Shown here: piece by piece, positions 349 through 50,171 of the stretch
How the letters are laid out: each line of letters opens with the position of its first letter
Position numbering within the stretch: position 1 is the stretch's first letter
NCBI GenBank assembly: GCA_965215565.1
Contig: CBDCDZ010000004.1
Span: forward strand, 3,520,001-3,584,000
Source of the DNA: Trueperaceae bacterium
GTDB taxonomy: Bacteria > Deinococcota > Deinococci > Deinococcales > Trueperaceae
Direction of reading: 5' to 3'
DNA length: 64,000 bases
Translations under genes and position numbers: made by a program
The notes under the pieces: model-generated
The model's input: only the letters and a program-made list of their open reading frames with translations
What the model was told of the DNA's origin: nothing
Databases searched by the model: none

Positions 349-596
349 TAGCAGGTCTCAGCCGTTAGGCTAGCGGGGCTTCATCTGGTCTGAGTGCGCA
401 AAGCGATGCGAAGCAACACTCCTACTACGAAGAACATTGTTTGCTTCGCGAAAACTCCGTCCCTACGGGCTTTCAGACTGCTCGCTCACGCGAAGCAGCT
501 TTCAGAAATGTAGCGCGCACTTGATTGTGATGAGGTTCCGTTACAGCAAGCTGTGAAATCTGCGTTCGTTTGTCTCAGTATGTCGTAGAACTGCCG
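349..596 (+). mobile_element. Family A MITE-like element with four internal micro-inserts
   Basis: Starts TAGCAGGT, ends ...GTCTCAGTATGTCGTAGAACTGC; collinear with the 111-bp core once inserts are removed. Confidence 0.75.
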
Positions 597-928
597 TGAT
601 AAGGAGTCTCAGCCGTCAAGCTAGCAAAACCTCTGCCGAGTGCGAGAGGGCGCAAGGACGAACGCAAAGGCAAATGAGGTCAGGAGGTCTTGAGTCAAAC
701 ACGTTAAGCACGTTTCTATCAGGGTGCTCCGCTACGAGTAAGGGCTCGAGACCCAACGCGCTCTTTTCAGCGACGTAGACCCCTCTACGTCATCCTACGT
801 AGGGAGTCTTTTTCACGTCGTAGACGGCTTGCGTAAGCTAATTGACCCATGCGCCGTTCCCACTTTGCGCGCTATGCTTGGGCGCAGGACATGAGACAAC
901 GTTCGACGACTTGTTAAAGGAGCACCGC

Positions 929-1174
929 ATGGTTCAGTCTGCCCCTAAAATCCCTTCCTCCACTTCGTTCTCCCTACGCCCCGACAGCTTGACCTCGCGC
1001 GAGTACGAAGTGCTGAAGCTCATCGCGGAAGGGATGACGAACAAGCGCGTGGCGAGCGTGCTCGACATCTCACCGCGCACTGTGAGCACCCACCTCACGC
1101 GCATTTACGGCAAGCTCTGGGTGAGAGGGCGAACAGCGGCAGTGGTCAAAGCGGCGCGGTTAGGGTTGGTCTAG
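929..1174 (+). CDS. Stand-alone LuxR/GerE-type HTH regulator
   Basis: LTSREYEVLKLIAEGMTNKRVASVLDISPRTVSTHLTRIYGKL; AAGGAG RBS before ATG 929. Confidence 0.85.
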   Translation: MVQSAPKIPSSTSFSLRPDSLTSREYEVLKLIAEGMTNKRVASVLDISPRTVSTHLTRIYGKLWVRGRTAAVVKAARLGLV

Positions 1175-1218
1175 GAAGGTTCGGATGTAGGTACTTCTTC
1201 ATACGCTACACTGCGTTC

Positions 1219-1740
1219 ATGGTGAGAGCTGCGACACAAGCGGATGTTCCCAGTGTTGCCCGTGTCCACGTGCAGGCGTGGCGCGAAACCTATACAGGGC
1301 TCATCCCGCAAGAGGTATTGGACAACCTCTCGGAGGACGAACGAGCGGCGATGTGGCGCGGGGCACTGAGCGAGGGGAGCGCCACCCCTCTACTCGTCTA
1401 CGAACATGAAGGAGAGGTCATCGGTTTTGCCGCTACCGGACCGGAGCGGGAGAAGCACGCGCGCTACACGGGCGAACTCTACGCGATTTATCTTTTGCGA
1501 GAGTTTCACGGGTACGGCTACGGTAAGGCGCTCTTTCAGGAAGCAGTGCATTTGTTAGAAGCAGTGGGATATGACGCCATGCGGCTCTGGGTTTTGGAGG
1601 ACAATCCGGCGAGAGGCTTTTACGAACATCTAGGCGGCGAACTCCACGAGCGCAAAACCATCACGATGATGGGCGCAACCTTGAGCGAAGTCGCGTATAG
1701 CTGGTCCGAACTTCCTGCTTTGCCCCCGAATGAGCCGTGA
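1219..1740 (+). CDS. GNAT N-acetyltransferase
   Basis: VHVQAWRETY, ELYAIYLL..HGYGYGKAL and LWVLEDNPARGFYE motifs. Confidence 0.9.
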   Translation: MVRAATQADVPSVARVHVQAWRETYTGLIPQEVLDNLSEDERAAMWRGALSEGSATPLLVYEHEGEVIGFAATGPEREKHARYTGELYAIYLLREFHGYGYGKALFQEAVHLLEAVGYDAMRLWVLEDNPARGFYEHLGGELHERKTITMMGATLSEVAYSWSELPALPPNEP

Positions 1741-1778
1741 CGCTAAAGAGGTTGTAGGAAGGGGTCTTCTCGAGCCCC

Positions 1779-2378
1779 TTAAAGCTCAACCCGAAAGCTC
1801 AGCCCCTGGTCCACCCCTTCGGTATAGACGAGCGAAAAATTGTCGATGGTTGCGGTCCACGCGAAGGTGTCCTCGTTCAAGAAGCGCACTACGTTGGGGA
1901 GCAATTCTGGCGTGAGGTCGCCGTGGGCGAGCGTGATATGCGGGAGCCACCTTTCGGGGTGGTAGAGCGGATTAGGCTTGACGGCGAGGTCGGAGAGGGA
2001 ACTATAGAGCGAGCAGTGATAGTGAACGAGCTTGGGGCTACGCACGACAGGGATGTAGATAATCGGCTTAGGACCGGGGAAGATACCGAGCCCGGCGGTG
2101 CGAATGTGAAAGGGACGCCCCTCGTCGGCAACGCGCGCTAGGAGCGAGTGAACGCCTTCGTCGTCGAAGTCATTCGCGCCGTGATACGAAAAGTGCGGAA
2201 AGGGCGCGCTGTAGATGCTGCGCAGCCCGAACTCGCGTTCTAGCGCCGCCCATATCCCCCTCACCTTCTCGTCGTGCTTAGCGTCGAGTAACGAGACCAC
2301 CGCCTCGATGCCCGCGTCACCCCGTTTGCCTGCGGGTGTCTTAGGTTTCGGTCCGGCTAGTTCTCGGTCTAGGCTCAT
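1779..2378 (-). CDS. 2H phosphoesterase (2'-5' RNA ligase family)
   Basis: Two HxS/T motifs: PHFSY and PHITL. Confidence 0.8.
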   Translation of the reverse strand: MSLDRELAGPKPKTPAGKRGDAGIEAVVSLLDAKHDEKVRGIWAALEREFGLRSIYSAPFPHFSYHGANDFDDEGVHSLLARVADEGRPFHIRTAGLGIFPGPKPIIYIPVVRSPKLVHYHCSLYSSLSDLAVKPNPLYHPERWLPHITLAHGDLTPELLPNVVRFLNEDTFAWTATIDNFSLVYTEGVDQGLSFRVEL

Positions 2379-2539
2379 CAGAGTATCACTGTACCAGGTT
2401 GATGTACCGTAATACTAGGGGAATGAGGAACATTTCATTGCGATGTGAAGTCGTTTTGTGTAAGCGTCGTCCACATTCAATGTGACAGAGGCGCTTTTTT
2501 GCTCTCCAAATGGAAGAGGTGTTCTGGGCTTTCGGTTCC

Positions 2540-2965
2540 TCAGAGCATCTTTCTGTAGACGATTTCCCCCACGTTGTCATCGGCGATGTTCTCAATGATG
2601 CCGTTTGTGTGAAAACCCATGTGTACGTGCCAGCGTTGCGGGTCTAGCTCGTCGGTCTGGCTCGAGGACAAGAGCGCCACGTAACCGCGTTCTTTAAGTT
2701 CAGCCTCTAAAAAGCTCAGAAGAAGCCGCGACACACCTCTTCGGCGGTGTTCGGTTGAAACGAAGATCATGGCGAGAAAGGGTACGGTGCTCCACAGCAC
2801 GTCGAAGCGGAGATGACCGACAGTCAAGGTGGATTCTTCTAGCACCGCAACGATGACCTCCGAAGCGCTGATTTTGTGCTGCCAATCTTGCTCTCTAGTC
2901 CAGGGGTCAACCTCTTGAAGAAATGGGGTGTCGTCTCTTTGAGCGTAGCGAATAGTACAAGACAT
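2540..2965 (-). CDS. GNAT N-acetyltransferase
   Basis: IFVSTEHRRRGVSRLLL acetyl-CoA-binding motif A. Confidence 0.8.
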   Translation of the reverse strand: MSCTIRYAQRDDTPFLQEVDPWTREQDWQHKISASEVIVAVLEESTLTVGHLRFDVLWSTVPFLAMIFVSTEHRRRGVSRLLLSFLEAELKERGYVALLSSSQTDELDPQRWHVHMGFHTNGIIENIADDNVGEIVYRKML

Positions 2966-3032
2966 AGTGACCTCTTAATAATGGTGACCCCTTGATAGAT
3001 GAGTAATGCAGTTTGGCCCACCAACTCCGCGC

Positions 3033-5114
3033 TCAGTCCTCTTCACGCTGCACGAGCGTCAGAATCGTGTAGAGCGCCACTGCCTCCCCGTGCTGATTGG
3101 TGAGCCGCACGTCCCACGCCACCACGCCCGCCGCATATTTGTCGTCGTCGCGTTTGTCCTTTTTGATCTTCTGCTTCACGGTGAGTTGTGCCTGGATGGT
3201 GTCGCCGATGCCGACGGGTTCAACGAAACGCAAGTTATCTAAGCCGTAATTCGCCAAAACGGGCCCCGGTCTTGGGTCGACGAATAGACCCGCCGCCATT
3301 GACACCAAGAAGTAGCCATGCGCCACGCGCTTTTCAAACAAGGAGTCTTTTGCAGCAATTTCGTCTACGTGCGCGTAGAAATAGTCACCGCTCACGTTGG
3401 CGAAGTTCACGATGTCCGCTTCTGTCACGGTGCGGCGGTGGGTGAGGTAGGTTTCACCGATGGAGAGGTCTTCGAACCGCTTGCGGAAGGGATGGACCTC
3501 ATCGTGCGTTGTTTGTGCGCCTGCCACGTACTCCTTCGTCACGCTCATGAGTGTCGTCGGGTCCGCTTGAACGGCGGTGCGCTGCATGAAGTGTTTGATG
3601 GAGCGCGCGCCGCCCAGTTCTTCGCCGCCGCCCGCGCGTCCGGGTCCGCCGTGGACGAGGTAGGGTAAGGGCGAGCCGTGTCCAGTAGACGAGGCGGCGT
3701 TCTCGCGGTTGAGGACCAAGATTCGTCCGTGATGCGACGCTGCACCCAGCACGAGCCGCCGCGCCTCTTCGCGGTCATGCGTAATGGCGGAGGCGACGAG
3801 CGAGCCGCGTCCGCGCTTGGCGAGTGCGCCCGCCTCTTCTAATGTTTCATAAGGCATGAGCGTGGCGACGGGTCCGAAGGCCTCGACCTCATGAGGTTCT
3901 AGGGCGTTTAGCGGGTCCTCACAGAGGAGTAGCGTCGGCGGGTAAAAGCCGCCCTTCTCAGCGTCGCCGCCGTGAAGCTCGAGCCTGCCCTCGAACACCA
4001 CTTCACAAGAGGTGCGCAGCCTCTTTACGCTCCGCCCCACCGCGTCGCGCTGTTCCGCGCTTACTAAGGGACCCATGCGCACCTCGTCGCATTCAGGGTC
4101 GCCCATCGTCACGCTATTAAGGCGCTGGCTCAACGCTTCTGTCACCGCCTCCACCTTATCTTTCGGTACAATGACGCGGCGAATCGCGGTGCACTTCTGT
4201 CCCGCCTTGACCGTCATCTCCCTCGAGACCTCTTTGATGAACAGTCCAAATTCCTCATCGCCAGGCTGGACGCTCTCGCCCAAGATGCAGGCGTTTAAGG
4301 AATCTGCCTCGAGCGTAAAGGGCACCGCCTTATCTATGATATTTGGATGCGCCTTCAGCTTCTTGCCCGTTTCAGCGGAGCCTGTAAAGGTCACGGCGTC
4401 CTGTTCATTGAGATGCGGCAAGAAGTCTACGATGTCGCCCGCGAGGAGTTGTATGGACCCCTCCGGCAAAAGGTTCGTCCGCACCATCTCCTGAAACATC
4501 GCCACCGCCAAATAAGAGGTCTGCGGCGCAGGTTTAATCACTGCTGATACGCCAGCGAGAAAGGTGGGCGCGAGCTTTTCCAGCATCCCCCAACAGGGAA
4601 AGTTGAAGGCGTTGATATGGACCGCCACGCCCTCTTTCGGCGTCAAGAGGTGACGCGCTGTAAAGGTGCCGTCTTTAGAAAGAGGGAGCGCCAGACCCTC
4701 GGTCAAAAAGGTCTCATTGGGGAATTCGCGGCGGACGAGGCTCGAGTAGGCGAAGAGCGTCCCGATGCCCCCCTCGATGTCGATCCAGCCGCCCCGCCGC
4801 GTCGTTCCCGTTTTGAATGAAACTTCGTAAAAGCGCTCTTTGACGCTCATGAGGTGTTTAGCGAGTTCTTTGAGAATAAGGGCGCGTTCGTGGAAGGTCT
4901 GTCTGCGCAAGTTGGGACCGCCGACGTCCCTGGCGTAGTGCAGTGCGCCTGCAATGTCGAGACCGTCTGTCGTGAGGTGGGTGATAGGTTTGCCGTAGAC
5001 GGCGTCTACAACCTCTACGCCGTCACCCGCGCCCTCTTGCCACTCGCCTGTGATGAAACTCGGGAGTTTGCTTGTGAGCGCTGAATCTAAAGGATGTCCG
5101 CTGAGTTGAGCCAT
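3033..5114 (-). CDS. paaZ: Bifunctional aldehyde dehydrogenase / MaoC hydratase PaaZ
   Basis: INAFNFPCWG, EADSLN, KAGQKCTAIRR, HGGPGRAGGGEELGG, and a C-terminal MaoC domain (RVAHGYF, LANYG). Confidence 0.93.
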   Translation of the reverse strand: MAQLSGHPLDSALTSKLPSFITGEWQEGAGDGVEVVDAVYGKPITHLTTDGLDIAGALHYARDVGGPNLRRQTFHERALILKELAKHLMSVKERFYEVSFKTGTTRRGGWIDIEGGIGTLFAYSSLVRREFPNETFLTEGLALPLSKDGTFTARHLLTPKEGVAVHINAFNFPCWGMLEKLAPTFLAGVSAVIKPAPQTSYLAVAMFQEMVRTNLLPEGSIQLLAGDIVDFLPHLNEQDAVTFTGSAETGKKLKAHPNIIDKAVPFTLEADSLNACILGESVQPGDEEFGLFIKEVSREMTVKAGQKCTAIRRVIVPKDKVEAVTEALSQRLNSVTMGDPECDEVRMGPLVSAEQRDAVGRSVKRLRTSCEVVFEGRLELHGGDAEKGGFYPPTLLLCEDPLNALEPHEVEAFGPVATLMPYETLEEAGALAKRGRGSLVASAITHDREEARRLVLGAASHHGRILVLNRENAASSTGHGSPLPYLVHGGPGRAGGGEELGGARSIKHFMQRTAVQADPTTLMSVTKEYVAGAQTTHDEVHPFRKRFEDLSIGETYLTHRRTVTEADIVNFANVSGDYFYAHVDEIAAKDSLFEKRVAHGYFLVSMAAGLFVDPRPGPVLANYGLDNLRFVEPVGIGDTIQAQLTVKQKIKKDKRDDDKYAAGVVAWDVRLTNQHGEAVALYTILTLVQREED

Positions 5115-5240
5115 GCCTTATGGTACTCGTATGAACTCTTGCAGATACCGCGCTGTAGGTTGAAGGGGACACTGCTCGAGTCGCTAAGTTGGTGCGCCTC
5201 TACGAAATAAGAGGTTGCAAGCTCACCTTGCAACCTTCCG

Positions 5241-5352
5241 TAGTGGTTCTAAGTCGAGTGCTGCTGTGTACTCCCTCCGCTGTCTCAACGTAGTGAACAA
5301 GGGGTTGAAACCCCTTGCTTTGACACTAGCGTCATTCCAAATAGAACCACTA
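5241..5352 (+). mobile_element. Family B 112-bp MITE-like element
   Basis: TIR TAGTGGTTCTA...TAGAACCACTA; central palindrome CAAGGGGTTGAAACCCCTTG; similar copies at 10680 and 21985. Confidence 0.75.
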
Positions 5353-5409
5353 CCCAACCTCTTATAGTTCGTTTTGTTGCCTTTCAACCGCTCGAGGCGC
5401 ACTAAACGG

Positions 5410-8073
5410 TTACGTCAAACTAACCAGTACAGAGAAAGGAAGAGGTAAGTCGTTGGGACTAAGGTCTTCTCCTATCTGAATGTCTGCGCCAGAGAGCGCG
5501 TCGCGCCAACCTCTTCCGCGCATGTCCTCGGGTATGGCAATTTTAACGCCGCTCAAATCCCTCTCCGCCCTAACCGCTGGAAAACGCGGCACGACGACTA
5601 AGAGTGCGTTGTCCTCGGCTTCGCGCGTGAATGCTAGGAAGAACTCGCAGCCTTCGCCCGTCACCTCCAAGTCTCGGTAATCGCCTCTGAAAAGCGAATC
5701 CTGTTCTCCTCGGAGTTTGAGAAGTTGCGCCATGACGTAGAGCTTAGCCCTGGGCTTCTGCTCAGAAAGCCAACCGCTCAGCGTATCCGCGTCCGGGTTC
5801 TCGAAGAGCGGAGCCATCTCATCTAAGAGGGCGTTCCTCTCCTCGTAATCCACCGGGCGGCGGTTGTCGGGGTCCACGAGCGAGAGGTCTAGGAGTTCGG
5901 TCCCCTGGTAGAAGTCGGGGACGCCGGGCGTGGTGAGTTTCAAGATGAGTTGCGACACGCCGTTCAAAAAGCCGTCTTTGGCGAGGTCCTGGGCGAGCGG
6001 CTCGACGATTTGCGCCACCTCTTCGTCCGTGGTCATCTCCCGCACAAAGGTTTTGAGTTCTTCCTCGTACTCGCCGTTCGGGTTGAGCCACGACGAGTTG
6101 ACCTTGGCTTCGCGCACAGCTTTCTCCATGTACGCTTCTAGGCGTTCCGCGAGCGAGTTCGGCTCTTCGCCCACCCACAGCGCCACGAGCAGTTGATAGA
6201 ACAAGTAGGCGTCGTTTTTCGTGACCGACTGCTGAAAGGGCGTGGTTTCGGTTCGTTTTTGCCGTAAAACCTGCGCTCTATCGTCCAGCTTGCCCAAGAC
6301 CTCTTCCCAAGCGTCGGTGTGTTCGGCTAGCGCGATGAGGCGCATCCGCGTGTCCTCGCCGCGTTTGTGGTCGTGCGTCGCCGTTGCCAAGAGGTTGTCG
6401 GGGTAGCGGTAGGCGCGAAATCTCGCCCTCGAGTGAAAGCCGTGCGCGTCCGTCCCGAAGTGCTCGGGCTCGCCGCCGACTTCGTTAAGCGCAACCAGCG
6501 GAATGTAGCGGTAGAAGGTGGTGTCCTCGATGCCTTTTGCAGTGACGGGCGCGGTGTACTGCTGGAAGCGTCCAATAAAGGCATCTTGCGCGCCGCGCAA
6601 GTCCTCCTTGACGTCCCCGATGAGGCTGCGCTCGATGAAGTCGTAGACGGACAGCTCGGCGGCTAGGTTGCGGCGTTTGGCGGCTTGAACGGCTTCGCGC
6701 ACGATCTCTTTCGCCTCGTCCTTATCGAAAGGTAGATACGTCCGGTAGCGCGGGAAGGCGGCGATGACCTCGGCTAGCGCCTCTTGGAGCGAGTCTAAAG
6801 TGAAATCCCTAGTGTGATAATCTGCTTCGGAAAGCTCGTTGAGTTCGCCCGCTAAGCGCGTCAACTCGCCCGTCAAGCTCGTCTCCATCACTAAGCGTTT
6901 GGCGTCGTGGACCTCTTCTTCGAAGGGCGTGTAGTCGCCTAAAAAGCGGCGGTACGCCCGCGTGACGGGTAACTCACCCTCCTGATATAAGAGCACGCCC
7001 ATCGCGTCGTTCATGAATTCGTAGCCCGAGGTTCCCTCGACGGGCCACGCTTCGGGCAAGACCTCGCCGTGCGCTAAGATTTTCTCCACCCAGACGTTTC
7101 TCGAGCCCAACGCTTTAAGCTGCTCCAAGTAGCCGTGCGGGTCGAAAAGTCCATCTACGTGGTCGATGCGGACGCCGTCCATGCCCTCTTTGACCAGGAG
7201 TTCGCCCAGGGTGCGGTGCGCGTCCCAGAAGACCTCGGGCGACTCCATGCGCAGACCCACCAACTCGTTGATGTCGAAGAAGCGGCGGTAGTTGATTTCG
7301 CTCCCGGCGGTCTGCCAGTAGGAAAGCCGGAAGAACTGCCCCTCCAAGAGGGCGTGCATGTCCTCAGTTTCCAGCGTCGGCAAGTTCGATGCTAAGTCGA
7401 TCTGCTCTCCTAAGGCCAAGAGGCGTGTGCGCAAGCCTTCCGCCCGGTCGCGTTGGCTCGGCTCCAAGGAGGCGTAATCGTCCGTCAAGTCCTTGAGGTC
7501 AAAGTAGCGCTCGGTGCGCTCGAAAGAGGGCAGCATCCGCTCCAAAATCTGCGCGTACGAGCCGGGGTAGAGTGCGAAGAGGTTGTCGTAATAGGTGGCG
7601 TAGAAGCGTCCGTCGTCATAGGCTAACCCAAGTTCGCCGCCGTCCAGCACGTTCCCGTAAGGACCCCCCAAAAAGGGCAGCAAGACCTTATTTTGTAATT
7701 CCGGTTTGACGGGCGTCCAGTCGATGTCGAAAAAGTCCGCGTGCGCGGAGTTGGGCCCGTACGCCAAGACGTCTTGCCAGTAGACGTTGCGCGGCCCGAC
7801 GCCCGCGTGGTTCGGGACGTAGTCGAGGATGAAGGAGAGCCCGTGCGCCTGCGCCTCTTCGCGCAAACGCTCAAAGCCCTCCGCCCCGCCGAACGCCTCA
7901 CGGACCTGGTTGTGGTTGATCACGTCGTAGCCGTGCGTGCTGCCTTCCCTCGCTTCGGTAATAGGGGAGAGGTAAAGGTGCGAGACGCCGAGCTTTTGGA
8001 AGTAGGGCAAGAGGGCGCGGACGTCGTCAAACGCGAAGTCCGGGGTGAGTTGCAAGCGGTACGAAGCGTTCAC
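5410..8073 (-). CDS. treY: Malto-oligosyltrehalose synthase
   Basis: ASYRLQ, GSTHGYDV, DYVPNH, INYRRFFDINEL, RIDHVDGL, ATHDHKRGED, SLVDPDNRRPVD. Confidence 0.96.
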   Translation of the reverse strand: MNASYRLQLTPDFAFDDVRALLPYFQKLGVSHLYLSPITEAREGSTHGYDVINHNQVREAFGGAEGFERLREEAQAHGLSFILDYVPNHAGVGPRNVYWQDVLAYGPNSAHADFFDIDWTPVKPELQNKVLLPFLGGPYGNVLDGGELGLAYDDGRFYATYYDNLFALYPGSYAQILERMLPSFERTERYFDLKDLTDDYASLEPSQRDRAEGLRTRLLALGEQIDLASNLPTLETEDMHALLEGQFFRLSYWQTAGSEINYRRFFDINELVGLRMESPEVFWDAHRTLGELLVKEGMDGVRIDHVDGLFDPHGYLEQLKALGSRNVWVEKILAHGEVLPEAWPVEGTSGYEFMNDAMGVLLYQEGELPVTRAYRRFLGDYTPFEEEVHDAKRLVMETSLTGELTRLAGELNELSEADYHTRDFTLDSLQEALAEVIAAFPRYRTYLPFDKDEAKEIVREAVQAAKRRNLAAELSVYDFIERSLIGDVKEDLRGAQDAFIGRFQQYTAPVTAKGIEDTTFYRYIPLVALNEVGGEPEHFGTDAHGFHSRARFRAYRYPDNLLATATHDHKRGEDTRMRLIALAEHTDAWEEVLGKLDDRAQVLRQKRTETTPFQQSVTKNDAYLFYQLLVALWVGEEPNSLAERLEAYMEKAVREAKVNSSWLNPNGEYEEELKTFVREMTTDEEVAQIVEPLAQDLAKDGFLNGVSQLILKLTTPGVPDFYQGTELLDLSLVDPDNRRPVDYEERNALLDEMAPLFENPDADTLSGWLSEQKPRAKLYVMAQLLKLRGEQDSLFRGDYRDLEVTGEGCEFFLAFTREAEDNALLVVVPRFPAVRAERDLSGVKIAIPEDMRGRGWRDALSGADIQIGEDLSPNDLPLPFSVLVSLT

Positions 8074-10098: not shown

Positions 10099-10233
10099 TA
10101 GCAAGTATCATTTGGTTTGAGCCAGTCTCACGTTAGAGAACTTGGGCGAACACGCACATTCTTAAATGAGATCCCGCTAGTTCTTCGAACTGAGACTTGC
10201 GCTATTTCAATTCAGTACTTCTGTGAATTGCTT
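10099..10233 (+). mobile_element. Family A element (111 bp core plus 24 bp net insert)
   Basis: TATAGCAAGTATCATTTGGTTTGAG start; insert at 10170-10194; closely similar to 12771-12881. Confidence 0.8.
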
Positions 10234-10546: not shown

Positions 10547-10679
10547 ACGTTCCCCCTTTTGTTCCGCTAAACCTTACGTTCAGTATAAAAGATGTGGGGT
10601 TATGAGAAGGGCGTCGGCTTTACAGAGCGAATTGAGCGAAATGTTGAGGGGTGTCGGTTCTACCTCATGCCGATTCTGG

Positions 10680-10791
10680 TAGTGGTTTCAAGTCGAATGC
10701 TGCCATGTGCTCCTTCTGCTATCTCTATGTAAGGAATAAGGGGTTGAAACCCCTTGCTTTGACATCAGCATCATTCTAGATAAAGCCACTA
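10680..10791 (+). mobile_element. Family B 112-bp element
   Basis: TAGTGGTTT...AAAGCCACTA ends, same AAGGGGTTGAAACCCCTT core and same length as the 5241 copy. Confidence 0.75.
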
Positions 10792-11433
10792 CCCCGATTC
10801 TTTCTGTAGGACCTGACTGTAAAGCATTCCCAAGCGCCTACGGTGAGTCTGGCGAGGGCTTAGCGCCTGTTTTTCAAAGTGAGGTGCCGGGTCAACGAGC
10901 GCACGAGCTTGCATATCGGTCTGCCAGTTGAAAAAGCCGTAGAGCAAGCGGAGCCAGAGCAAACTGTGGAGGCGTCGAAGAGGGTCTTGCGGAATGCAAA
11001 AGTCGGCGGTGTACCAGACGCCTCCCGGCTCCAAGCGCTGCGCGAGTTTAGGGATGAGGTAACCTAGCTGCGTTTCCGTAAAAACGTCCAAAAAGAAGAG
11101 TGTGACGATGAGGTCATAGCGCCGCGCGGGGTAGTCGAAGGTGAGGGCGTCGGCGTGATGAAAGGTGACTTGGGACTGTGCGCGCAAGTTCGAGCTTCGC
11201 TTCTGCGCCAGCTTCAACATCTCCAAGCTCTTATCCACACAGTCGATCTGAGCGTAAGGATTGACCTCCAAAAGCTGCGCCAAAAAACGCCCGTCCCCTT
11301 CGCCTAAGATAAGTACACGCTCCGCATCTGTAAGTTCATCCAAAAAGGCGGTGCGGGTGCGCGTGAGGTCAAAGCCGAAGGCTAGGCGCTCGAGCAGCCG
11401 ATAAGGTCGCGCTAAGCGGTCGAAGCTCCTCAC
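10789..11433 (-). CDS. Class I SAM-dependent methyltransferase
   Basis: VLILGEGDGRF motif I, CVDKS, HADAL, YDLIVTLFFLD. Confidence 0.88.
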   Translation of the reverse strand: MRSFDRLARPYRLLERLAFGFDLTRTRTAFLDELTDAERVLILGEGDGRFLAQLLEVNPYAQIDCVDKSLEMLKLAQKRSSNLRAQSQVTFHHADALTFDYPARRYDLIVTLFFLDVFTETQLGYLIPKLAQRLEPGGVWYTADFCIPQDPLRRLHSLLWLRLLYGFFNWQTDMQARALVDPAPHFEKQALSPRQTHRRRLGMLYSQVLQKESG

Positions 11434-12529: not shown

Positions 12530-12640
12530 TAGCAGTTCCATAACCTATTGAGACAGATAAGCGCAGATATCATCTCTGAAAGTGCGTGCCAAACAATAAC
12601 TTACTTAGTGAGCGTGTCTCTGACCAGATGATACCTGCTA
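12530..12640 (-). mobile_element. Family A element, 111 bp, no insert
   Basis: TAGCAGTTCC...CCAGATGATACCTGCTA, exactly 111 bp. Confidence 0.82.
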
Positions 12641-12770: not shown

Positions 12771-12881
12771 TAGCAAGTATCATTTGGTTTGAGCCAGTCT
12801 CACGCTGGAGAACATCGACGAGCACGCACACTCTTAAATGATACTTGCGCTATTCCAATTCAGTACTTCTGTAAATTGCTT
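12771..12881 (+). mobile_element. Family A element, 111 bp, no insert
   Basis: TAGCAAGTATCATTTGG...AAATGATACTTGC...AAATTGCTT. Confidence 0.82.
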
Positions 12882-12927: not shown

Positions 12928-13038
12928 TAGCAGTTCCGAGACATACTGAGACGGATGAGCGCAGGTATCATCATCGAATGTGCGTGCTAGACGTCGTTTT
13001 ATCTAGTGGGCGTGTCTCAAACCAGATGATACCTGCTA
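12928..13038 (-). mobile_element. Family A element, 111 bp, no insert
   Basis: TAGCAGTTCC...GCAGGTATCATC...CAGATGATACCTGCTA. Confidence 0.82.
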
Positions 13039-15777: not shown

Positions 15778-16058
15778 GGGTAAGGGGTGCGTTTGGTGCC
15801 CACTTATGTCACTGGTGTTCACTTACGTCAAACGCAACGCGCCTAAGCTAGAGAAACCAGGTAAGATAGTGTAGAAATACTGCATTTTTGTTAAATTATA
15901 GCATTTCTCAAAATTGTTCTTGTGTCACGCAGATATTGCCGTTAGGCGTGCGCTCGATGATGTTCAGGGAAGTGAGGTTGGCGCAAAACAGATGACTATA
16001 GTGACCCAGTGTACTAAAGGTATACTTACTACACTTAACGGCGCGTACGAGGAGAGTC

Positions 16059-16709: not shown

Positions 16710-16841
16710 TAGCAGGTATCATCTGGTCAGCTACACTCTTACTGAAAAGAACATCGCCTAGCACGCACTTTCAAAGATGATATCTGCGGAGAAGTGTTGC
16801 TTCGCATAACTTCGTTCAAGCAATGACAAGTGGAACTACTA
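16710..16841 (+). mobile_element. Family A element (111 bp plus 21 bp insert)
   Basis: TATAGCAGGTATCATCTGG...GTGGAACTACTA; insert after ATCTGCG. Confidence 0.8.
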
Positions 16842-16845
16842 CTAG

Positions 16846-16911
16846 AAGGTGTCCCGTTCCGTGTGTATCCAAAATGCAAGGTGTCCCGTTCCGTGTGTAT
16901 CCAAAATGCAA
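16846..16911. repeat. Perfect 32-bp tandem duplication
   Basis: AAGGTGTCCCGTTCCGTGTGTATCCAAAATGC twice, head to tail. Confidence 0.92.
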
Positions 16912-16942: not shown

Positions 16943-17053
16943 TAGCAGGTATCATCTGGTCTAAGACACTCTCACTGTAGAAAACACTGTTCAGTACGCA
17001 CATTCAGAGATGATACCTGCGACACTCTGTCTCAGTATGTTTTGGAAGTGCTA
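16943..17053 (+). mobile_element. Family A element, 111-bp reference copy
   Basis: TAGCAGGTATCATCT...AGATGATACCTGC (perfect 13-bp internal IR)...GGAAGTGCTA. Confidence 0.85.
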
Positions 17054-21931: not shown

Positions 21932-21984
21932 GGCGTCGGCTGCATAGTTATGAACTAGAGAAGCGCGAAGTGTGAAGTGAGAGG

Positions 21985-22086
21985 TGGCGGCTCTACCCGA
22001 AATGACATTGATGTCCGAGCAAGGGGTTTCAACCCCTTGTTCACCGTACCAAGATAGCAGAAGGAGCAAGCAGCTTAGAACTGCTA
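21985..22086 (-). mobile_element. Family B element, degenerate (about 102 bp)
   Basis: GCAAGGGGTTTCAACCCCTTG core and AGATAGCAGAAGGAGCA match the 10680 copy in reverse. Confidence 0.65.
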
Positions 22087-22212: not shown

Positions 22213-22323
22213 TAGCACTTCCAAAACATACTGAGACAGAGTGTCGCAGGTATCACCTCACAACGTGCGTGCTAAACAGTGTTTTCTACAGTGAGGGTGT
22301 CTCAGACCAGATGATACCTGCTA
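22213..22323 (-). mobile_element. Family A element, 111 bp
   Basis: Near-identical reverse complement of 16943-17053. Confidence 0.85.
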
Positions 22324-35833: not shown

Positions 35834-36257
35834 TAGCGGTTATCAGAAGTAAAGCAGTGCACAGAAGTACTGAATTGGAATAGCGCAAGTCTCAGCCTGC
35901 TAAGGCTAGCGGGATTTCATTCTCAAATGTGCGTGCTGCTTTCTGAAAGCCCGTAGGGACGAAGTTTTCGCAAAGCGAATGACGTAGTTTGCCGTTAGGC
36001 AACGGTGTTCTACATCGTGAGAGCGTTGCTCCGCTTACGAAGTTTCCCTTTCGCAGATGCGAAAACGGTGTAACCGGGAAAAACTTATGTACACTCAAAC
36101 CAAATGATACTTGCTATATTGGACCGAAATAGCGCAGATTTCACAGCTTTGCTGTAACGGAACTTCATCCGACAATGTGCGTGCTAGTTGTCGTTCTATC
36201 ATGTGAGACTGGCTCAAACCAGATGAAGTCGCGTGGGCGCTCCCGCTGGACCTGCTA
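35834..36257 (-). mobile_element. Family A element (outer copy), split by a nested Family A copy
   Basis: 35834-35851 plus 36119-36257 rejoin into one element collinear with the core; TA on both outer flanks. Confidence 0.75.
35852..36116 (-). mobile_element. Family A element (inner copy) with three micro-insert blocks
   Basis: AAGCAGTGCACAGAAGTAC...CAAATGATACTTGCTA, flanked by TA at 35850-51 and 36117-18. Confidence 0.8.
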
Positions 36258-42469: not shown

Positions 42470-42707
42470 ACTACTCCCCCTTAAAGATGTAGATATAGAC
42501 ACGTTTTTGTGTTCTTGTGCCCTAACTAGCAGCATAGGTGAGTGAAGGATATGCGTGTGTAGATTGTCACACCATGTTTAGTGCAACTAGACCGGCTCTG
42601 CTATGAACCGTGTGATGGTCGGTGGCTCGGGTCCGTCCCAACGCAAAAACCCTCAAAGGGGTTTTGTAAGATAGGTCAGGAGGCGTCTTCACCGCGTAGA
42701 CTAGAGC

Positions 42708-43130
42708 ATGGCGATACTCACCGATATAGACAAGGTTGTGCGCGTGCTCCGCGAGAGCGAGACGGTAGCGGTTTTAGGCGCAAACGTGCGCGAGAGCAAA
42801 GCGGCGCACTACGTCCCTAAGTACCTCTACGGCGAAGGCTACACGATTTACCCGGTCAACCCCGTACACGAGGGAAAGACGCTCTTCGGCGAGCCCTTTT
42901 GCGGCAGCTTGCGCGATCTGCAAAAACCGATTGACGTGGTGGACGTCTTTCGCCGCAGCGATAACCTACCCGAGCATGTCGAAGATATCTTGGCGATGGA
43001 GCCGCGCCCGAAAGTCGTCTGGTTTCAGTCGGGTATCCGTCACGATGAGGTTGCAGAGCAGCTTTCAGACGCTGGGATTGACGTGATTCAGAGCCGCTGT
43101 ATGTTGGCGGATCACCAAAGGTTGCTGTAG
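42708..43130 (+). CDS. CoA-binding protein (YccU-like)
   Basis: VAVLGA, YPVNP, DVVDVFR, VWFQSGI. Confidence 0.9.
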   Translation: MAILTDIDKVVRVLRESETVAVLGANVRESKAAHYVPKYLYGEGYTIYPVNPVHEGKTLFGEPFCGSLRDLQKPIDVVDVFRRSDNLPEHVEDILAMEPRPKVVWFQSGIRHDEVAEQLSDAGIDVIQSRCMLADHQRLL

Positions 43131-43136
43131 ATTACC

Positions 43137-43985: not shown

Positions 43986-44524
43986 TTCAGGAGATGTGGG
44001 CGGCGGCGTCGGCTCCGCGCCGGTTTTTTACGTGGTTAGAGCCTCGAGACGCTCGTATTTTGAGAGCCTTTACCGTAGCGCTTTTCTCCTACCTCGTCTA
44101 CGCGCTGGCGCTAGCGCTGGCGTTTGTCCGCTCGAGCGACTCGAACGCCTACTTGCCCATCTTCGCGCTCGCTTTAGGCGTCGGCGCGCTGCAGTTCCTC
44201 TTCTTCTGGGGCTTGGGCGGCGTCTCACTGCAACGCCCTGGCTCGCTCGACGTGCGGGCGTGGGAAGTGGCGGGCTGGAGTTGGACGCCCGCGTTCTTCG
44301 TCGGCGTCTCGATGTTGCCCGCGCTCTTAGTCGTTCCCACAGTGGGCCTTGTGCTGAGCGTCGGCTTTCTGCTCGTGTGGCACCTTGCGGTGCTCCGCTA
44401 CGGTCTGCAAGTTTTTTTAGAGCGGGCAGTCTGGCGCATCGTGACGGTCTACGCGCTGCTCGTCATCGTTTTGCCGCTCGGTATCTTTGTGGGGATTCAG
44501 GTTGTCTTCTCGAGGCTGACCTGA
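43982..44524 (+). CDS. Membrane protein, Yip1-like hypothetical
   Basis: About five TM segments; ATGA overlap with mqnD. Confidence 0.65.
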   Translation: MIQEMWAAASAPRRFFTWLEPRDARILRAFTVALFSYLVYALALALAFVRSSDSNAYLPIFALALGVGALQFLFFWGLGGVSLQRPGSLDVRAWEVAGWSWTPAFFVGVSMLPALLVVPTVGLVLSVGFLLVWHLAVLRYGLQVFLERAVWRIVTVYALLVIVLPLGIFVGIQVVFSRLT

Positions 44525-44534
44525 GCCCCGTTCC

Positions 44535-44723
44535 CTAACCTTTGCCTTTCGCCTCATCCTCTTCTTGCGTCTCCCGCATATCTTCGCGGATATCCTCTTC
44601 GCTCACGCCCGCGACGTCCTCTAGAGTTTCGTCATTCTCCAACACCTTATCCTGCGCCCCGTAGCCGCTCTCGAAAGTGAGTTCGTGGTCGTCATCTTGA
44701 TTGTTCTGCCTATCGTCGTTCAT
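44535..44723 (-). CDS. Small acidic hypothetical protein
   Basis: GAGGTG RBS; D/E-rich 62 aa. Confidence 0.6.
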   Translation of the reverse strand: MNDDRQNNQDDDHELTFESGYGAQDKVLENDETLEDVAGVSEEDIREDMRETQEEDEAKGKG

Positions 44724-44819
44724 CTTGCACCTCTTTAGGGTCTTCTCAGTTTCGTTCAGTCTGCTCTAAATTTCGGCGGCTCACCGTGACGCTAGCATAA
44801 AAGGGGAGAGGTTGAGCGC

Positions 44820-46085
44820 TCATCCGGCCGGTTCAGAGCGCTTTGGCGGCGTCGCCAACATGAAAAAGACCGAGCCAAGTGCGGCGAGCGAGGCGAGCAC
44901 CGTGAAACCGACGTGGTAGCTGCCGAAGAGGTCGGCGAAACTGCCCGCGATTACCGGACCGCCCACCATCCCCACCGTGATGATCGGCGAGGAGAGCCCC
45001 ATAATCTGCCCGAAGTGGGTGCGCCCAAAGTAGTCCGCGCGTAAAGACTGCATGACCGGGCCGCGCAGCCCCCAAGCGAGCCCGTGCGTGACCGCGAAGG
45101 CGATGACCCAGGGAAGCCCTGTGCCGTAGGTTAGCATGAGCAGTCCGCCCGCATGACCGAACATCGCGGCGGTAGCGATGAAGCGTTTGTCGAACTTGTC
45201 ACCTAAAACGCCGCCGATAAGCTGCCCGGCGACGCTCATCGAGGTCATGACCGTAACCATCGTCGCCGCGAGCGTGAGCGAAAAGCCGTAGTCGTTCGTG
45301 AGGAACACGACGAGGTGCGCGAGCACGGCGAAGACAACGCCGAGCGCCAAGGAGTGACCGAACGAGATGAACCAGAAGGCGCGGGTGCGCACGGCTTCAC
45401 GCGCGGTGAAGTCGCGCTCTTGAGGGTCAGCGTCCGGGTTCTGCGGCGGCAAGCCGCCGTCGGGCTCTAAGTCCATCTCTTCTGGGGTGTTGCGCAAAAT
45501 GTAGGTCAGCGGAATGCCAATGATGAGGACCAACGCACTCGAGCCCAGCGCCGAAGCCCGCCAGCCGTAGGTCTCTAGCGCCCACGCGACGATAGGGACG
45601 ACCAAACCGCCCAGTGCAATGCCGGTCTGCACGAACGCCAACGCCAGTGAGCGCCAGCGCCGAAACCACTGCACGACAACGGTGTTGAGCGGCAAAAAAC
45701 CCGACAAACTCGCGCCCAAAGCGATGACGCAGACTGCGCCGTAAAAGTGCGCGAGCGTCTGAATTTGACTGAGCAAGGCGACGCCGACGGCGAAGATGAT
45801 GAGCCCGACGCGGATGACCCCCCTCGAGCCGAAGCGCCCCAAAAGCCAGCCGATGACCGGACCCAGCAAGCCGCCGCCTGCCTGCTGAATGCCGAACGCC
45901 ACCGAAAACGCCGTTTTGCTCCAGCCGAACTCGGGAGCCATCACCGCGAAGTACGCGCCAAAAGACTGCAAGGTAAAACTTGCGGTTAAGAATTGGGTGG
46001 CGACGCTTCCAGCTAAAACCCACCAGCCGTAAAAGACGCCCTGCGCCCACGTTTTGGTTTTTCCTAAGGTTCGTAGCCCTAACAC
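44820..46085 (-). CDS. MFS transporter (MCT/OxlT-like)
   Basis: FYGWWV, about 12 TM segments, GxLxxRFG motif A, DYFGR. Confidence 0.9.
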   Translation of the reverse strand: MLGLRTLGKTKTWAQGVFYGWWVLAGSVATQFLTASFTLQSFGAYFAVMAPEFGWSKTAFSVAFGIQQAGGGLLGPVIGWLLGRFGSRGVIRVGLIIFAVGVALLSQIQTLAHFYGAVCVIALGASLSGFLPLNTVVVQWFRRWRSLALAFVQTGIALGGLVVPIVAWALETYGWRASALGSSALVLIIGIPLTYILRNTPEEMDLEPDGGLPPQNPDADPQERDFTAREAVRTRAFWFISFGHSLALGVVFAVLAHLVVFLTNDYGFSLTLAATMVTVMTSMSVAGQLIGGVLGDKFDKRFIATAAMFGHAGGLLMLTYGTGLPWVIAFAVTHGLAWGLRGPVMQSLRADYFGRTHFGQIMGLSSPIITVGMVGGPVIAGSFADLFGSYHVGFTVLASLAALGSVFFMLATPPKRSEPAG

Positions 46086-46180
46086 GCGCGTTCCGCCGAC
46101 ATCGACATGAGAACTAGCCTACCTCACGTTCGTCAGAGGCAATGATGGACTGCGTACAAGAGGTCGAGGTAGCACATTTT

Positions 46181-46270
46181 TAGAGGCGGGTCTGGGACCC
46201 GCCTCTACTCAGGGTTACGTTTTATGCTCGTTCGAACATGGCGCTTAGAGGTGATTCATGAATCACCCCT
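46181..46270. repeat. Two REP-like palindromes
   Basis: TAGAGGCGGGTCTGGGACCCGCCTCTAC (GTAG on minus strand) and GGTGATTCATGAATCACC. Confidence 0.5.
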
Positions 46271-46279
46271 TCTGTGACC

Positions 46280-48880
46280 TCAATGGTCGTGGTCGTGAAT
46301 CTCCGGCTTCACGACGAAAAAGCCTCTATCGATGTCGCTCAAGATGACGATATCGTCGAAGTAGGGGTAGTTGCTCCAGACGCCGCTGAAGGCTGCCTCT
46401 GCGATGCAGGCCTGCTCTAACGGATTGGCTTCGGGGTGATGAAGCGTTTCCAAGCTCTGCGTCTCAGCGCCACCTGCGGCGCACGACTGTGTGCTCAACT
46501 CGGCGTCGTGATCGTGGTCCCCGTGGTCGTGATCGGGGTTGTCGCCGTCATCCTCGGGGTAGGTGTCGAAGTAGGCGATTTCCTCAATAGCCTCTATGTT
46601 GGTGAGGTCCACGATGCGCAAGCCGCTCGTGTAGTTCGCCTGGTATGCGTAGTCGCCTAGCGTATAGGTGTTGTGCCCGATGGCGTCACGCGGGTTCTTA
46701 AAGGTGCCTAAGAGCGTGGGGTTATCCAGGTCGCGCACGTCCCAGATGTAGGTCGAGGTGTCGATGCCGTTGTCCAACTCGTCAAGCTCGTCGTTAAAGA
46801 GGAAGTAGGCGTGGTCTTCGGTCAGCCAGCCTTGGTGCGCGTAACCCGCGCTCTCGTATTCGGTCCGCGCGACCTGCACGACGTTGTCCTTGTCGGTGAC
46901 GTCGGCGACGCCCAAGTAGTCGGCGCTGCCCTCGTTGATCTGTCCGTCCGAGGTGAGGCAGATTTCTCTATTCTGATAATCCTCGTCCGGTCCTTCGTAG
47001 ATGACGCACTGCGCGTCGTGGACGTAGACGTCGGTGGGATACGCTTCGCCTGCGCTCTCGCCCTCGGGCACGCCGCCCGCGAAGCAGCCCGCGAATTCGG
47101 GAGAGGTCGGCGTTGAGATGTCCAGCATCAGCAGACCGCCGAAGCAAACCTGCTCGTACTGCTCTTCAGTTGCGCCAACCGCGTATGCATACCCTGTTTC
47201 TTCGTCTATGACGATGTTGTGCGCGTTGCCGAAACCGTCGTAATGTGCAGTTTCCTCGAACGTTTGCGGGCTCGAGACAGAACGAAGCTGCGTGAGATCG
47301 AAAATCTGCATCCCGTGACCGTCGGCTTCGCTCACCACAAAGGCGTGATTTTTGTAGACCTTGATGTCGCGCCAAACGTTGCCCGAGCCCTCGGGGTTAT
47401 AGCTCGGCAAAAGCCCCAAATACTCCGGCTCGCTCGGGTTGCTCACGTCTACAAAGGCGACGCCCGTGGTCGTACCCATCATGGCGATGTCAATTCCTGT
47501 CTCCGGGTCGGTCCAGCCCCAGGCGTCGTTGCCCGAGCCGTCCGGCGTGCCGATAGTGGCGAGGGGCAAGTAGGCTAGGAGTTCCACGTCGTGCTGGTCG
47601 AAAGGAGCGAGCATGAGGTCGAGTGTGACCTCCCTCGCCGCGTCGCCGCCGCTCGCGGTGACGGTGAGCGTCCGCTCCCCTAAGTCGGCTCCCTCGGAGA
47701 CTTCGACAGGCAACACGCCCAGCTCGGCGTCCGCATCTATTGTGACAGTTTCTGCCGAAAGTCCGTCCGCGCCCTCGGCGCTAAGCTCGATCTCGCCCTG
47801 GAAGTCGGCGAGCCGCTTGACGTTGAAAACGAGCGCCTCCGTCGTCCCCGGTACGAGCGTGCTGACGTTGCTGCCGCCCGGTGTGAGGTAGAGCGCGGGG
47901 TCGGGCTTCTCGTCCACCGCGTCAAAGGTGAGCGCCCAAGCGTTAAGCGTACCCGTGTCGGGCGTATCCACGTCGTCGCGTACCGAGAGCGTCCAGGTGC
48001 CCGCGAGCGCCTCGCCGTAGAAGAACTCCAGGGGCTCGAGCGGTCTATATTCAGCTTCGGGGAACGCTTCGATATCCGCTTCCGGGTCATAGGCGACGTC
48101 GTCTTGGCTCAGCTCGGCGCTGTCGGTCAGCGTCGTCTTGATGTCCCGGTCGTCGGAGAACGGTTTTTCGACGAGGGTGATGACGGTGCCGGTCTCTTCA
48201 TGCTCTAGAGTAATAACCAGGTCGAAAACGAAGGGGTGCGCGATATCGAGCGTCACGCTGAGGTCGGTCAAGTAGCGCGGATCGTCGATCTGGATGGAGT
48301 CGCTGACCGTGTCGTCTTGGACAGTCGCGAGACCGGGCGCACTTTCGAACGTGACCTCTTGACCCTCACCTTCCCCGTCACCGTTATCACCGTCGTCACC
48401 CTCACCGGGGGGGATAAGTACCGCGTCGATCACGTGAATAATGCCGTCTAACGCAAGGATGTTCGCTTGAACGACCTCGACTTCGCCGTTTAAGATGACC
48501 GCGCCGTCCTCCACCGAGATATCTATCTCGCTACCTTCTAGCGTCTCGATGCTCTCCCCGTCTAACGCAATGAGGTCTTCGGCGGTGTATCCCTCGGGCG
48601 CGAGGTGGTAGCGCAGAATCTGGCGGAGCCTTTCGGGTTCGACGTTGCCGACCTCCTCAAAGAGCGCCTCAAACGCCGCGTCGGTCGGCGCAAAGATGGT
48701 GAACGTGCCGCTCTGTAAAGACTGCAGTTCGCCCTCTTCTAAAAGCGAACTCAGGGTGCCGAAACGCCCGTCGTTTTGCAGCGTCTCCGTGACGGAAGCC
48801 GCGTCATCCTGCTGGCAGCCAACGAACAGTAGCGTGATAAGAGTAAAGCCGCTCAGCAGCCTACTTACAAAATATTTCAT
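46280..48880 (-). CDS. Acidic lipoprotein: fasciclin + P-domain + choice-of-anchor B/LVIVD propeller
   Basis: Lipobox FVGC; FTIFAPTDAAF and GIIHVIDAVL (FAS1); DIAHPFVFDL and GTWTLSVRD (P-domain); NDAWGWTD, WRDIKVY, AHNI, HQGWLT, WSNYPYF. Confidence 0.82.
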   Translation of the reverse strand: MKYFVSRLLSGFTLITLLFVGCQQDDAASVTETLQNDGRFGTLSSLLEEGELQSLQSGTFTIFAPTDAAFEALFEEVGNVEPERLRQILRYHLAPEGYTAEDLIALDGESIETLEGSEIDISVEDGAVILNGEVEVVQANILALDGIIHVIDAVLIPPGEGDDGDNGDGEGEGQEVTFESAPGLATVQDDTVSDSIQIDDPRYLTDLSVTLDIAHPFVFDLVITLEHEETGTVITLVEKPFSDDRDIKTTLTDSAELSQDDVAYDPEADIEAFPEAEYRPLEPLEFFYGEALAGTWTLSVRDDVDTPDTGTLNAWALTFDAVDEKPDPALYLTPGGSNVSTLVPGTTEALVFNVKRLADFQGEIELSAEGADGLSAETVTIDADAELGVLPVEVSEGADLGERTLTVTASGGDAAREVTLDLMLAPFDQHDVELLAYLPLATIGTPDGSGNDAWGWTDPETGIDIAMMGTTTGVAFVDVSNPSEPEYLGLLPSYNPEGSGNVWRDIKVYKNHAFVVSEADGHGMQIFDLTQLRSVSSPQTFEETAHYDGFGNAHNIVIDEETGYAYAVGATEEQYEQVCFGGLLMLDISTPTSPEFAGCFAGGVPEGESAGEAYPTDVYVHDAQCVIYEGPDEDYQNREICLTSDGQINEGSADYLGVADVTDKDNVVQVARTEYESAGYAHQGWLTEDHAYFLFNDELDELDNGIDTSTYIWDVRDLDNPTLLGTFKNPRDAIGHNTYTLGDYAYQANYTSGLRIVDLTNIEAIEEIAYFDTYPEDDGDNPDHDHGDHDHDAELSTQSCAAGGAETQSLETLHHPEANPLEQACIAEAAFSGVWSNYPYFDDIVILSDIDRGFFVVKPEIHDHDH

Positions 48881-49146
48881 CTTAATTCCTTCTCTGAATG
48901 GAACGAAAACGTAAGCCGAGGCGAACGGTTGCCCTCAGCTCGAGCGTGCGAGTCTTCCCCTCTTCAAGGCGCAATACATAGAGAGATGAGATGTGGTCCT
49001 ATTGTAATGAACACTTAATGATAGAAGGTGAGAAGGCGCGTATGCGCCCAAGAATTTCACAGGTTCTATAGACCCTATAGGCGTGCTGGCTTCAGAGGAG
49101 ACAGCTTAGGAACGCCCTGGCGCTACACGGTTCACTGCGCCCGAAC

Positions 49147-49737
49147 CTATCTCGAGCGCGGCAGGTACTTCTCCCAAATCGGATCGATGCTCGGCAAGAT
49201 GCCGTACGCCGAGGAGAACATAAAGCGCGGCGCGTAGGGTTTGCGCTTGAGGGCCATCTTCGCCTCTTCGGGCGTGCGGTCGCGTTTTTTCGCGTTGCAG
49301 CGGTGGCAGCACGCCACCACGTTCTCCCAACTCGTGCCGCCGCCCCGACTGCGCGGCAGCACGTGGTCGAGCGTGAGGTCGCTGCTCTTCTCGAAGCAAT
49401 ACTGGCAGGTGTGATCGTCGCGGCGAAAGACGTTTTTGCGGTTAAACGCGACGCGGTGACGCGGCGGACGCTTCACGTACTTCTTGAGGCGAATCACGCT
49501 CGGCACCACGAAAATTTGGCTGGGCGAGCGCAGCACGCGCGCGCTGTCCTCGACGCGCTCCGCCACCTCGTGCATGAGGAGCGCCACCGCCCTTTTGACC
49601 GAGCACACGTGCAGCGGCTCGTACGACGCATTGAGAATCAGCACCCGCGTCGCGTTGACGTTCGCGATGGGGCTGAGGGCGTCCAAGTCCTCGTCGTAGG
49701 CGAAGGGGTCGAGCGCGTGGATGTGCTCCAAATCCAT
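49147..49737 (-). CDS. HNH endonuclease (McrA-like)
   Basis: VLILNASYEPL, RDDHTCQYC, TLDHVLPRSRGG, CHRCNAKK. Confidence 0.92.
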   Translation of the reverse strand: MDLEHIHALDPFAYDEDLDALSPIANVNATRVLILNASYEPLHVCSVKRAVALLMHEVAERVEDSARVLRSPSQIFVVPSVIRLKKYVKRPPRHRVAFNRKNVFRRDDHTCQYCFEKSSDLTLDHVLPRSRGGGTSWENVVACCHRCNAKKRDRTPEEAKMALKRKPYAPRFMFSSAYGILPSIDPIWEKYLPRSR

Positions 49738-49973
49738 GTTGTCCAGATCGTTCGCGGCGGCGGTGCCTCCTAAGTTGGATATAAGCCCAGTATAACCTAA
49801 AAATCTTCAGGTGAATATCAGGGGGAGGTGAGGAATACATGAAGAGGTCGTCAGGGTGACGGTCTTCGGTACAGGTTTGAACAGGAGCTTCCACGCTTGC
49901 ACATTAAGCTCGAGGCTTGATTTCAGTAACTGAGCGCAGTCTCGAGCACTTGAAACGTGAGACCGCTAAGATA

Positions 49974-50171
49974 TAGCAGGTATCATCTGGTCAGCTTGGG
50001 CGAAGCCATTCCCGGAGGGAAACTTCGTAAGCGAAGCAACGCTCTCACTAAAAAGAACATCGCCTAGCACGCACGTTCGGGGATGAAATCCCGCTATTGC
50101 TGCGCAATGAGATTTGCGGAGAAGCGTTGCTCCGCATAACTACGTTCAAGCAATGATAAGTGGAACTGCTA
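49974..50171 (+). mobile_element. Family A element with three micro-inserts
   Basis: TATAGCAGGTATCATCTGG...GTGGAACTGCTA; backbone closest to the 16710 copy. Confidence 0.8.

Follow-up and report, generated by a model that had tools for sequence, protein, structure and literature searches.

Nested insertion of short hairpin modules into a MITE of a Trueperaceae genome

The SDR elements of Nostoc, reportedly described by Elhai et al. in 2008, are said to be compensated hairpins of 21-27 nt that insert precisely into repeats and mini-transposons and that nest in one another. We know of no enzyme assigned to them. ERIC elements carry internal inserts. SDR5 inserts precisely into HIP1 (PMC4390886). 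Single-strand transposition models are available for REP, BIME and REPIN sequences with RAYT (TnpA-REP) and for IS200/IS605 (PMC3733652; PMC8266576, PMC3333891, PMC6006769). The nested micro-insertion described here in Trueperaceae is real and well supported; the phenomenon is not new in kind. A literature search (subscription papers and supplements outside its scope) returned nothing on these Trueperaceae repeats.

The window is the whole stretch of 64,000 nt that was analysed (C4:3520001-3584000) and belongs to a genome of 4.49 Mb, 99.99% complete (G000). Its congeners are G001 and G002; two further genomes of the family, G005 and G137, represent a different genus. The window stretch is covered by contigs from two sequencing runs of one sample, which may be the source of the assembly; joints in these contigs may stem from paralogues and are uninformative on polymorphism. 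The host repeat, Family A, is 111 nt long, with terminal inverted repeats of 6 nt and a second, inner inverted repeat. A profile built from 102 copies of exactly 111 nt found 547 regions in G000, 509 of them scoring at least 30 (about 500 copies); this catalogue is incomplete, the copy at window 16710 having been dropped by the overlap filter. A 3-bp target duplication flanks 192 of the 396 full copies (shuffled mean, 12). Empty orthologous sites with a single triplet are found in G001 (at least 5 clean, with 15 of 52 collinear pairs listed). Only 8 of the 509 copies lie mostly inside called ORFs. Given these inverted ends, target duplication, empty sites and few copies in ORFs, Family A is a MITE, non-coding and multi-copy. 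No autonomous partner was found among 24 end-motif candidates in G000, among 2 such candidates in 1.4 Mb of G001, or among the multi-copy elements inspected; a metagenome scan for the end motif returned MITE copies and chance matches.

Genome-wide decomposition, as proposed in a first-pass annotation of the window, resolved the inserts into nested hairpin modules of 17-25 nt at fixed sites. A1: T, hairpin and tail AAACTNCGTAA, 21-24 nt. A2: double hairpin, 21-22 nt, sites II and IV. B: hairpin and GCTTTCAGA, 17, 19 or 29 nt. C-type modules (C, 23-26 nt) and several others: both arms of the inner inverted repeat. The copies and inserts of the window are the following (window coordinates; means of detection in brackets).

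349..596, plus strand: Family A copy, filled at four sites (profile alignment, sequence).
357..380, plus: module C in the left arm, one host base replaced.
395..415, minus: site II, module A2 of 21 nt, two mini-hairpins.
441..508, plus: site III stack of copy 349..596, followed by one extra base; A1 (441-460, 507-508) is interrupted by B (461-477) and long B (478-506).
534..557, minus: C-type module in the inner arm.
16710..16841, plus: Family A copy with 3-bp duplication (sequence).
16798..16818, plus: module A2, corrected from the site IV insert of the first-pass annotation.
35852..36116, minus: Family A copy with inserts at three sites (profile alignment, sequence).
36027..36093, minus: site II stack of three levels; outer A2 at 36080-36093 + 36027-36034.
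36035-36049 + 36074-36079: A1 within that A2.
36050-36073: A-like 24-mer inside the A1 loop, innermost level of the site II stack.
35940..36001, minus: site III stack; A1 at 35980-36001.
35959-35979 + 35940-35941: second A1 of that stack; B at 35942-35958.
35891..35916, plus: module C in the inner arm.
36116..36257, minus: truncated Family A copy adjoining 35852..36116, with left-arm and inner-arm inserts (profile).
49974..50171, plus: Family A copy with 3-bp duplication (profile, sequence).
49997..50038, minus: site II, A2 (49997-50009, 50031-50038) with A1 (50010-50030) nested on the opposite strand.
50087..50111, minus: C-type module in the inner arm.
50128..50148, plus: module A2, likewise corrected from site IV.
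12530..12640, minus: empty 111-nt copy (profile).
12771..12881, plus: empty 111-nt copy (profile).
12928..13038, minus: empty 111-nt copy (profile).
16943..17053, plus: empty 111-nt copy (profile).
22213..22323, minus: empty 111-nt copy (profile).
50226..50336, minus: empty 111-nt copy (profile).
10099..10233, plus: copy with module C at the inner arm (profile).
15899..16031, minus: diverged copy with left-arm insert (profile, score 38).
55558..55731, plus: copy whose inner arm holds a stack of module C nested in itself (profile).

The first-pass annotation had described three site II inserts with a common end, two of them holding the same inner sequence and one with extra sequence nested inside. 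This description stands: the inserts lie at 395-415, 36027-36093 and 49997-50038, the shared inner module is at 50010-50030 and at 36035-36049 + 36074-36079, and the extra sequence is the 24 nt at 36050-36073. The site III inserts at 441-508 (plus one extra base) and 35940-36001 do share the string quoted for them. The supposed duplication of GCTTTCAGA reflects two modules in tandem (461-477, 478-506), each with GCTTTCAGA as its 3' tail; no target duplication is involved. The 21-mer proposed for site IV is 8 nt out of register, its first 8 nt being host subfamily sequence; the insert proper, at 16798-16818 and 50128-50148, is the module of site II in reverse orientation.

Several other features were noted in the window and its genome. 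A second dispersed repeat of about 116 nt is found at 5240-5355, 10679-10794 and 21983-22044; the copy at 10679 is missing from the orthologous site of G001. A perfect 32-nt tandem duplication (16846-16909) lies between two Family A copies. A small gene resembling a helix-turn-helix regulator (930-1175) has repeat-rich surroundings and is missing from the orthologous interval of G001 and G002. Rfam over the window returned the 16S rRNA gene (63126-64000, minus strand) and nothing else. Elsewhere in G000, two genes which, from their protein sequence, we take to be recA-like (C4:292037-293035 and 3841101-3842099) are 99.9% identical over 999 nt and differ in their flanks.

Fill was counted over 366 stringent full-length copies. 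Empty copies: 152. Filled: left arm, 57; site II, 81; site III, 103; inner arm, 152. At site II, 280 copies lack an insert and 70 carry one of 21-22 nt; at site III the corresponding numbers are 260 and 70 (21-23 nt), and higher stacks lie at 40-45, 62 and 69-70 nt. Insert lengths are quantised. Site IV, genome-wide, is empty in 14 copies and holds 21 nt in 15 and 42 nt in 2. Given such quantised lengths over 366 copies, the insert pattern is not chance.

The junctions of sites II and III are precise and carry no duplicated bases, and flank mismatch beside the inserts of filled copies is at background level. Fill follows a dinucleotide of the host. Site II is filled in 60/212 copies of subfamilies with GT (minus-strand reading) vs 0/65 without it, and site III in 72/192 vs 5/83 (277 and 275 of the 366 copies, respectively, were scorable). 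GT directly precedes all 81 of 81 A2 matches. A1 also enters hairpin loops after CT, its own loop included. Pairing of the module tail with the target GT as a guide was considered and rejected: by eye, tail variants keep the same target. Among the 61 matches of module B, 49 lie on the tail of an A module and 10 on another B (59/61); modules thus create targets. The proposal that each insert creates the target for the next therefore holds for module B, and for module A in loops and tandems. It does not hold as a general rule, since first-level inserts use targets already present in the host.

The main rival explanation is that modules rarely arise or insert and are then spread among repeat copies by short-tract gene conversion or by template switching in the course of repair, with no dedicated enzyme. 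One host base is replaced beside C-type inserts in 81/81 cases, and long B copies have an extra G three bases downstream in 12/12; both features resemble copying from a donor. An excess of multi-insert copies (site II, site III and inner arm together: 34 seen vs 8 expected), a filled allele that is identical letter for letter in G137, one orthologous pair with different variants of the same module, and the failure to find an enzyme gene in the genomes searched speak in the same direction. Against it, the same insert, or one with a single mismatch, is found in different subfamilies in 41/60 carriers at site II and 52/77 at site III, and the diagnostic bases within 10 nt of the shared insert are the host's own in 282 vs 26 comparisons at site II and 362 vs 36 at site III (pairwise counts between subfamilies, not independent); even those 1-5 nt from the junction remain the host's. 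Moreover, A1 occurs in several unrelated hosts that share little besides GT or CT, and GT-less subfamilies are nearly never filled though otherwise homologous. As a complete account, conversion is unlikely; it probably contributes, and part of the spread may stem from copying of short tracts from one repeat to another.

The modules are hairpins of a particular type. The second stem of A2 occurs in five compensated paired forms among 80 copies, and 55 distinct A1 hairpins were collected (a set selected for pairing). On the opposite strand, the variable position of the A1 tail supplies the N of a GNA loop; in 137 tails it is T in 62, G in 37, A in 15, C in 8 and a two-base form in 15. The 413 inserts examined contain 467 C(GNA)G hairpins (29 in shuffles), 185 GNRA loops (45 in shuffles) and 33 UNCG loops (7 in shuffles), all counted as copies and not as events; 394 of the 467 C(GNA)G hairpins are not readable as RNA cUNCGg. 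The first hairpin falls outside the GNA, ANA and GNNA classes in 49/137. With standard parameters, which may omit the mini-hairpin bonus, the modules have folding energies close to zero. GNA is the sole triloop of 64 to form a DNA mini-hairpin, which is resistant to 3' exonuclease; its RNA counterparts are less stable (PMC13037366).

The enrichment of GNRA and UNCG loops would suit modules that are small structured RNAs, copied to DNA by a reverse transcriptase acting in trans, and G001 has four copies of a reverse-transcriptase gene. This route is improbable. RVT_1 was not found in G000, at 99.99% completeness, or in G002; GNA triloops are more numerous than RNA-type loops; and fill varies little with gene orientation (0.50-0.65, with rough gene calls), no clear bias with the transcribed strand being found. 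Nor was any leading/lagging strand bias found (p 0.18-1.0; GC skew weak, origin not located).

The direction of change is very probably insertion. All 22 subfamilies with at least 4 copies contain empty members; polymorphism is seen in 12 of the 22 for the left arm, 14 for site II, 15 for site III and 20 for the inner arm. On a low-resolution backbone tree, gains-only histories cost 72 steps vs 122 for losses-only at site II, and 74 vs 118 at site III. Bulk reading covered 2.2 Mb of the roughly 4.6 Mb of G001, and 0.2 Mb of G002. Both flanks are matched in the 2.2 Mb of G001 for 70 of the 509 copies of G000: 33 of these loci are empty, 16 carry Family A and 21 are other. Of the 16, 8 differ in module presence or type, 1 differs in variant and 7 are without module. 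Among the 8, two differences concern site II, one concerns an A1 module in the inner arm, and two pairs hold different modules at the left arm; no difference at site III was found among the 16 loci. Modules therefore change in place, independently of MITE transposition. Among the alignments listed, the Family A copies of the window are not common to orthologous sites of G001 or G002.

The count of modules outside Family A, also proposed earlier, gave 35 A1 matches beyond the Family A mask. Empty twins exist in G000 for 15 of the 35, 2 of which are unmasked Family A; the other 13 lie in other repeats, and 11 of these are exact. At least 4 other host families can be distinguished by eye, G001 matches included. 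No convincing module was found in the long ORFs of G000 (the loose B pattern gave chance matches). Found separately, an IS630 gene of G000 and G001 carries a 66-nt in-frame stack (22 codons) assembled from the module vocabulary described above; G001 also has an intact allele without the stack. The IS630 genes with stacks in coding sequence are at C4:1932053-1934734 and 1277159-1278123 in G000; one stack-bearing gene also holds a Family A copy in its catalytic part, and the same codon boundary holds other stacks in G001 and G002. Copies with multiple inserts number 115 and fall in 107 groups. A few composites recur with different target duplications, which implies that the MITE also moves when filled.

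Successive rounds of micro-insertion, as the first-pass annotation had put it, are thus borne out by orthologous copies that differ in place, empty twins outside Family A, the intact empty IS630 allele, the 111-nt core shared by outgroup copies and the fewer steps of gains-only histories. The opposite history, in which a single long ancestor lost different parts independently to yield all variants, is very improbable. It draws on the 6 of 366 copies filled at all four sites and on some filled alleles common to the sister genus. It is already contradicted by the IS630 allele, by the metagenome relatives and by the orthologues: empty members exist in every subfamily of at least 4 copies, losses-only histories need more steps (on the low-resolution tree), flanking repeats that could guide precise excision are absent, orthologues hold different modules at one site, modules are also present in hosts other than Family A, a coding gene among them, and distant relatives share the 111-nt core while carrying other inserts. 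This was the alternative named in the annotation as its refutation, and it fails on orthologues, other hosts and outgroups.

In the other genus, modules were found at 0/14 Family A loci of G005 (by a search that favours empty copies), and A2 is present at the same sites in 3/14 loci of G137, so that some insertions are old. A1, A2 and B are absent from all 68 metagenome relatives, 27 of which show exactly the spacing of an empty copy; several relatives (L198, L227, L240, L299 and others) have hairpin inserts of their own or 9-nt tandem expansions. Matches to the A1 pattern number 121 in G000 and 45 in G001, with some double counting, against 0-2 in the 149 other Deinococcales genomes searched, much as for the control. 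One exact variant occurs in 31 stretches of the species collection, 25 from Trueperaceae and 6 from Acidimicrobiales, Spirochaetaceae and Clostridia; several lie amid similar hairpins. Viral contigs gave 1 and 6 matches, with an unconvincing module context.

An IS110-family element of about 1.13 kb (C4:638751-639876 in G000, and six further copies; L125, L128, L131, L133, L135) resides in Family A. All 7 of 7 near-identical copies occupy one position of the MITE left end; they are 7 of the 8 IS110 family matches of G000. The recombinase has PF01548 and PF02371 (DEDD); the element has a 2-nt core. A junction promoter is present, and stretches of 5-8 nt in the non-coding left end match target and donor, as in a putative bridge RNA. 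Three Family A copies retain only the first bases of IS110. In G002 a different multi-copy IS110 lies in other palindromic repeats (L124, L127, L130, L132, L134). That the resident recombinase inserts the modules is hardly credible, even with seven copies in Family A and no long duplication: it uses a single site and leaves its 2-nt core at both ends, whereas the junctions of sites II and III have no repeated core, and the G002 element targets other repeats.

The reading preferred here, with a probability of roughly 0.6, is one-by-one addition of modules, probably as single-stranded DNA pasted after GT or CT. Hairpin modules of 17-25 nt would be added singly to copies already in place, each pasted by a strand-transfer enzyme just after the dinucleotide. 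Tandems would arise because insertion would rebuild the junction of GT with a following T, and nests through the fresh GT or loop targets that every module introduces; MITE transposition would then carry some composites to new sites. Pasting of single-stranded DNA is favoured by the homology-free junctions, the dinucleotide target and the DNA-stable loop type. That a single-stranded intermediate is handled by an enzyme acting in trans and recognising the mini-hairpins has, in our estimate, slightly less than even chances. Gene searches of G000, G001 and G002 found no moving enzyme. Y1_Tnp (PF01797) was not found in G001 or G002 and in G000 occurs within a restriction-modification protein only, though a divergent HUH protein could escape the search. 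A Y1 transposase is not supported as the mover, no stand-alone gene having been found in the three genomes. The Y1 domain of G000 (C4:3786234-3786551; L117) belongs to a large Eco57I-type protein.

A bolder form of the preferred reading is doubtful, if somewhat less so than conversion as a complete account: the modules would be mobile units of about 21 nt without any autonomous gene, travelling as exonuclease-resistant mini-hairpins of single-stranded DNA, and a host enzyme would read C(GNA)G loops and paste them after GT or CT. If this were true, the modules would make up a food chain, one of them living solely on the target made by another, and SDR-type elements across bacteria would gain their missing mechanism. 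Scarless enzymatic pasting of short oligonucleotides would be useful. Family A is an unusually well-controlled case for how elements of 20-25 nt move, with a single host repeat present in hundreds of copies, both filled and empty. The controls on offer are subfamilies with and without the target dinucleotide, orthologues in a sister species and a coding gene that fixes direction. The rules are testable: a cut at GT or CT, no duplication, DNA-type GNA loops and one module-dependent module.

Among known systems, Family A resembles ERIC and Correia elements, which are non-coding, intergenic and present in hundreds, with terminal inverted repeats and target duplication (PMC10969869); it differs in its 3-bp duplication, in a partner transposase that was not found and in many modules at 5 or more positions. 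The resident IS110 is, like ISPpu9 in REPs, multi-copy and confined to a repeat family (PMC12288879), but its target is the left end of a MITE. The SNRs of Deinococcus radiodurans belong to the same phylum and are also modular intergenic repeats in hundreds of copies (PMC1978522); by pattern rather than by SNR sequence comparison, A1 is at control level in the 149 other Deinococcales genomes searched.

With REP/RAYT the modules share short hairpins lying in other palindromes and, as the model mechanism, a single-stranded, duplication-free route. They differ in having no GTAG or CGTC tag at their ends and in their smaller double mini-hairpins, and no REP-flanked RAYT gene was found in the three congeners. 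Membership in REP/RAYT was rejected on the missing tag at the hairpin foot and the lack of a stand-alone Y1 gene.

The likeness to the Nostoc SDR elements is one of description, not of sequence, and spans different phyla. It lies in size (21-27 nt, against A1 21-24, A2 21-22 and C 23-26, with B at 17-19 and a 29-nt form), in stems kept by compensatory change (five forms of A2), in precise insertion into other repeats and into the modules themselves, and in presence or absence at orthologous sites (8/16; IS630 alleles). Unlike the SDR elements, the Trueperaceae modules comprise several families under one GT/CT rule, with one module dependent on the tail of another, and the subfamilies of the host MITE make the target rule measurable here.
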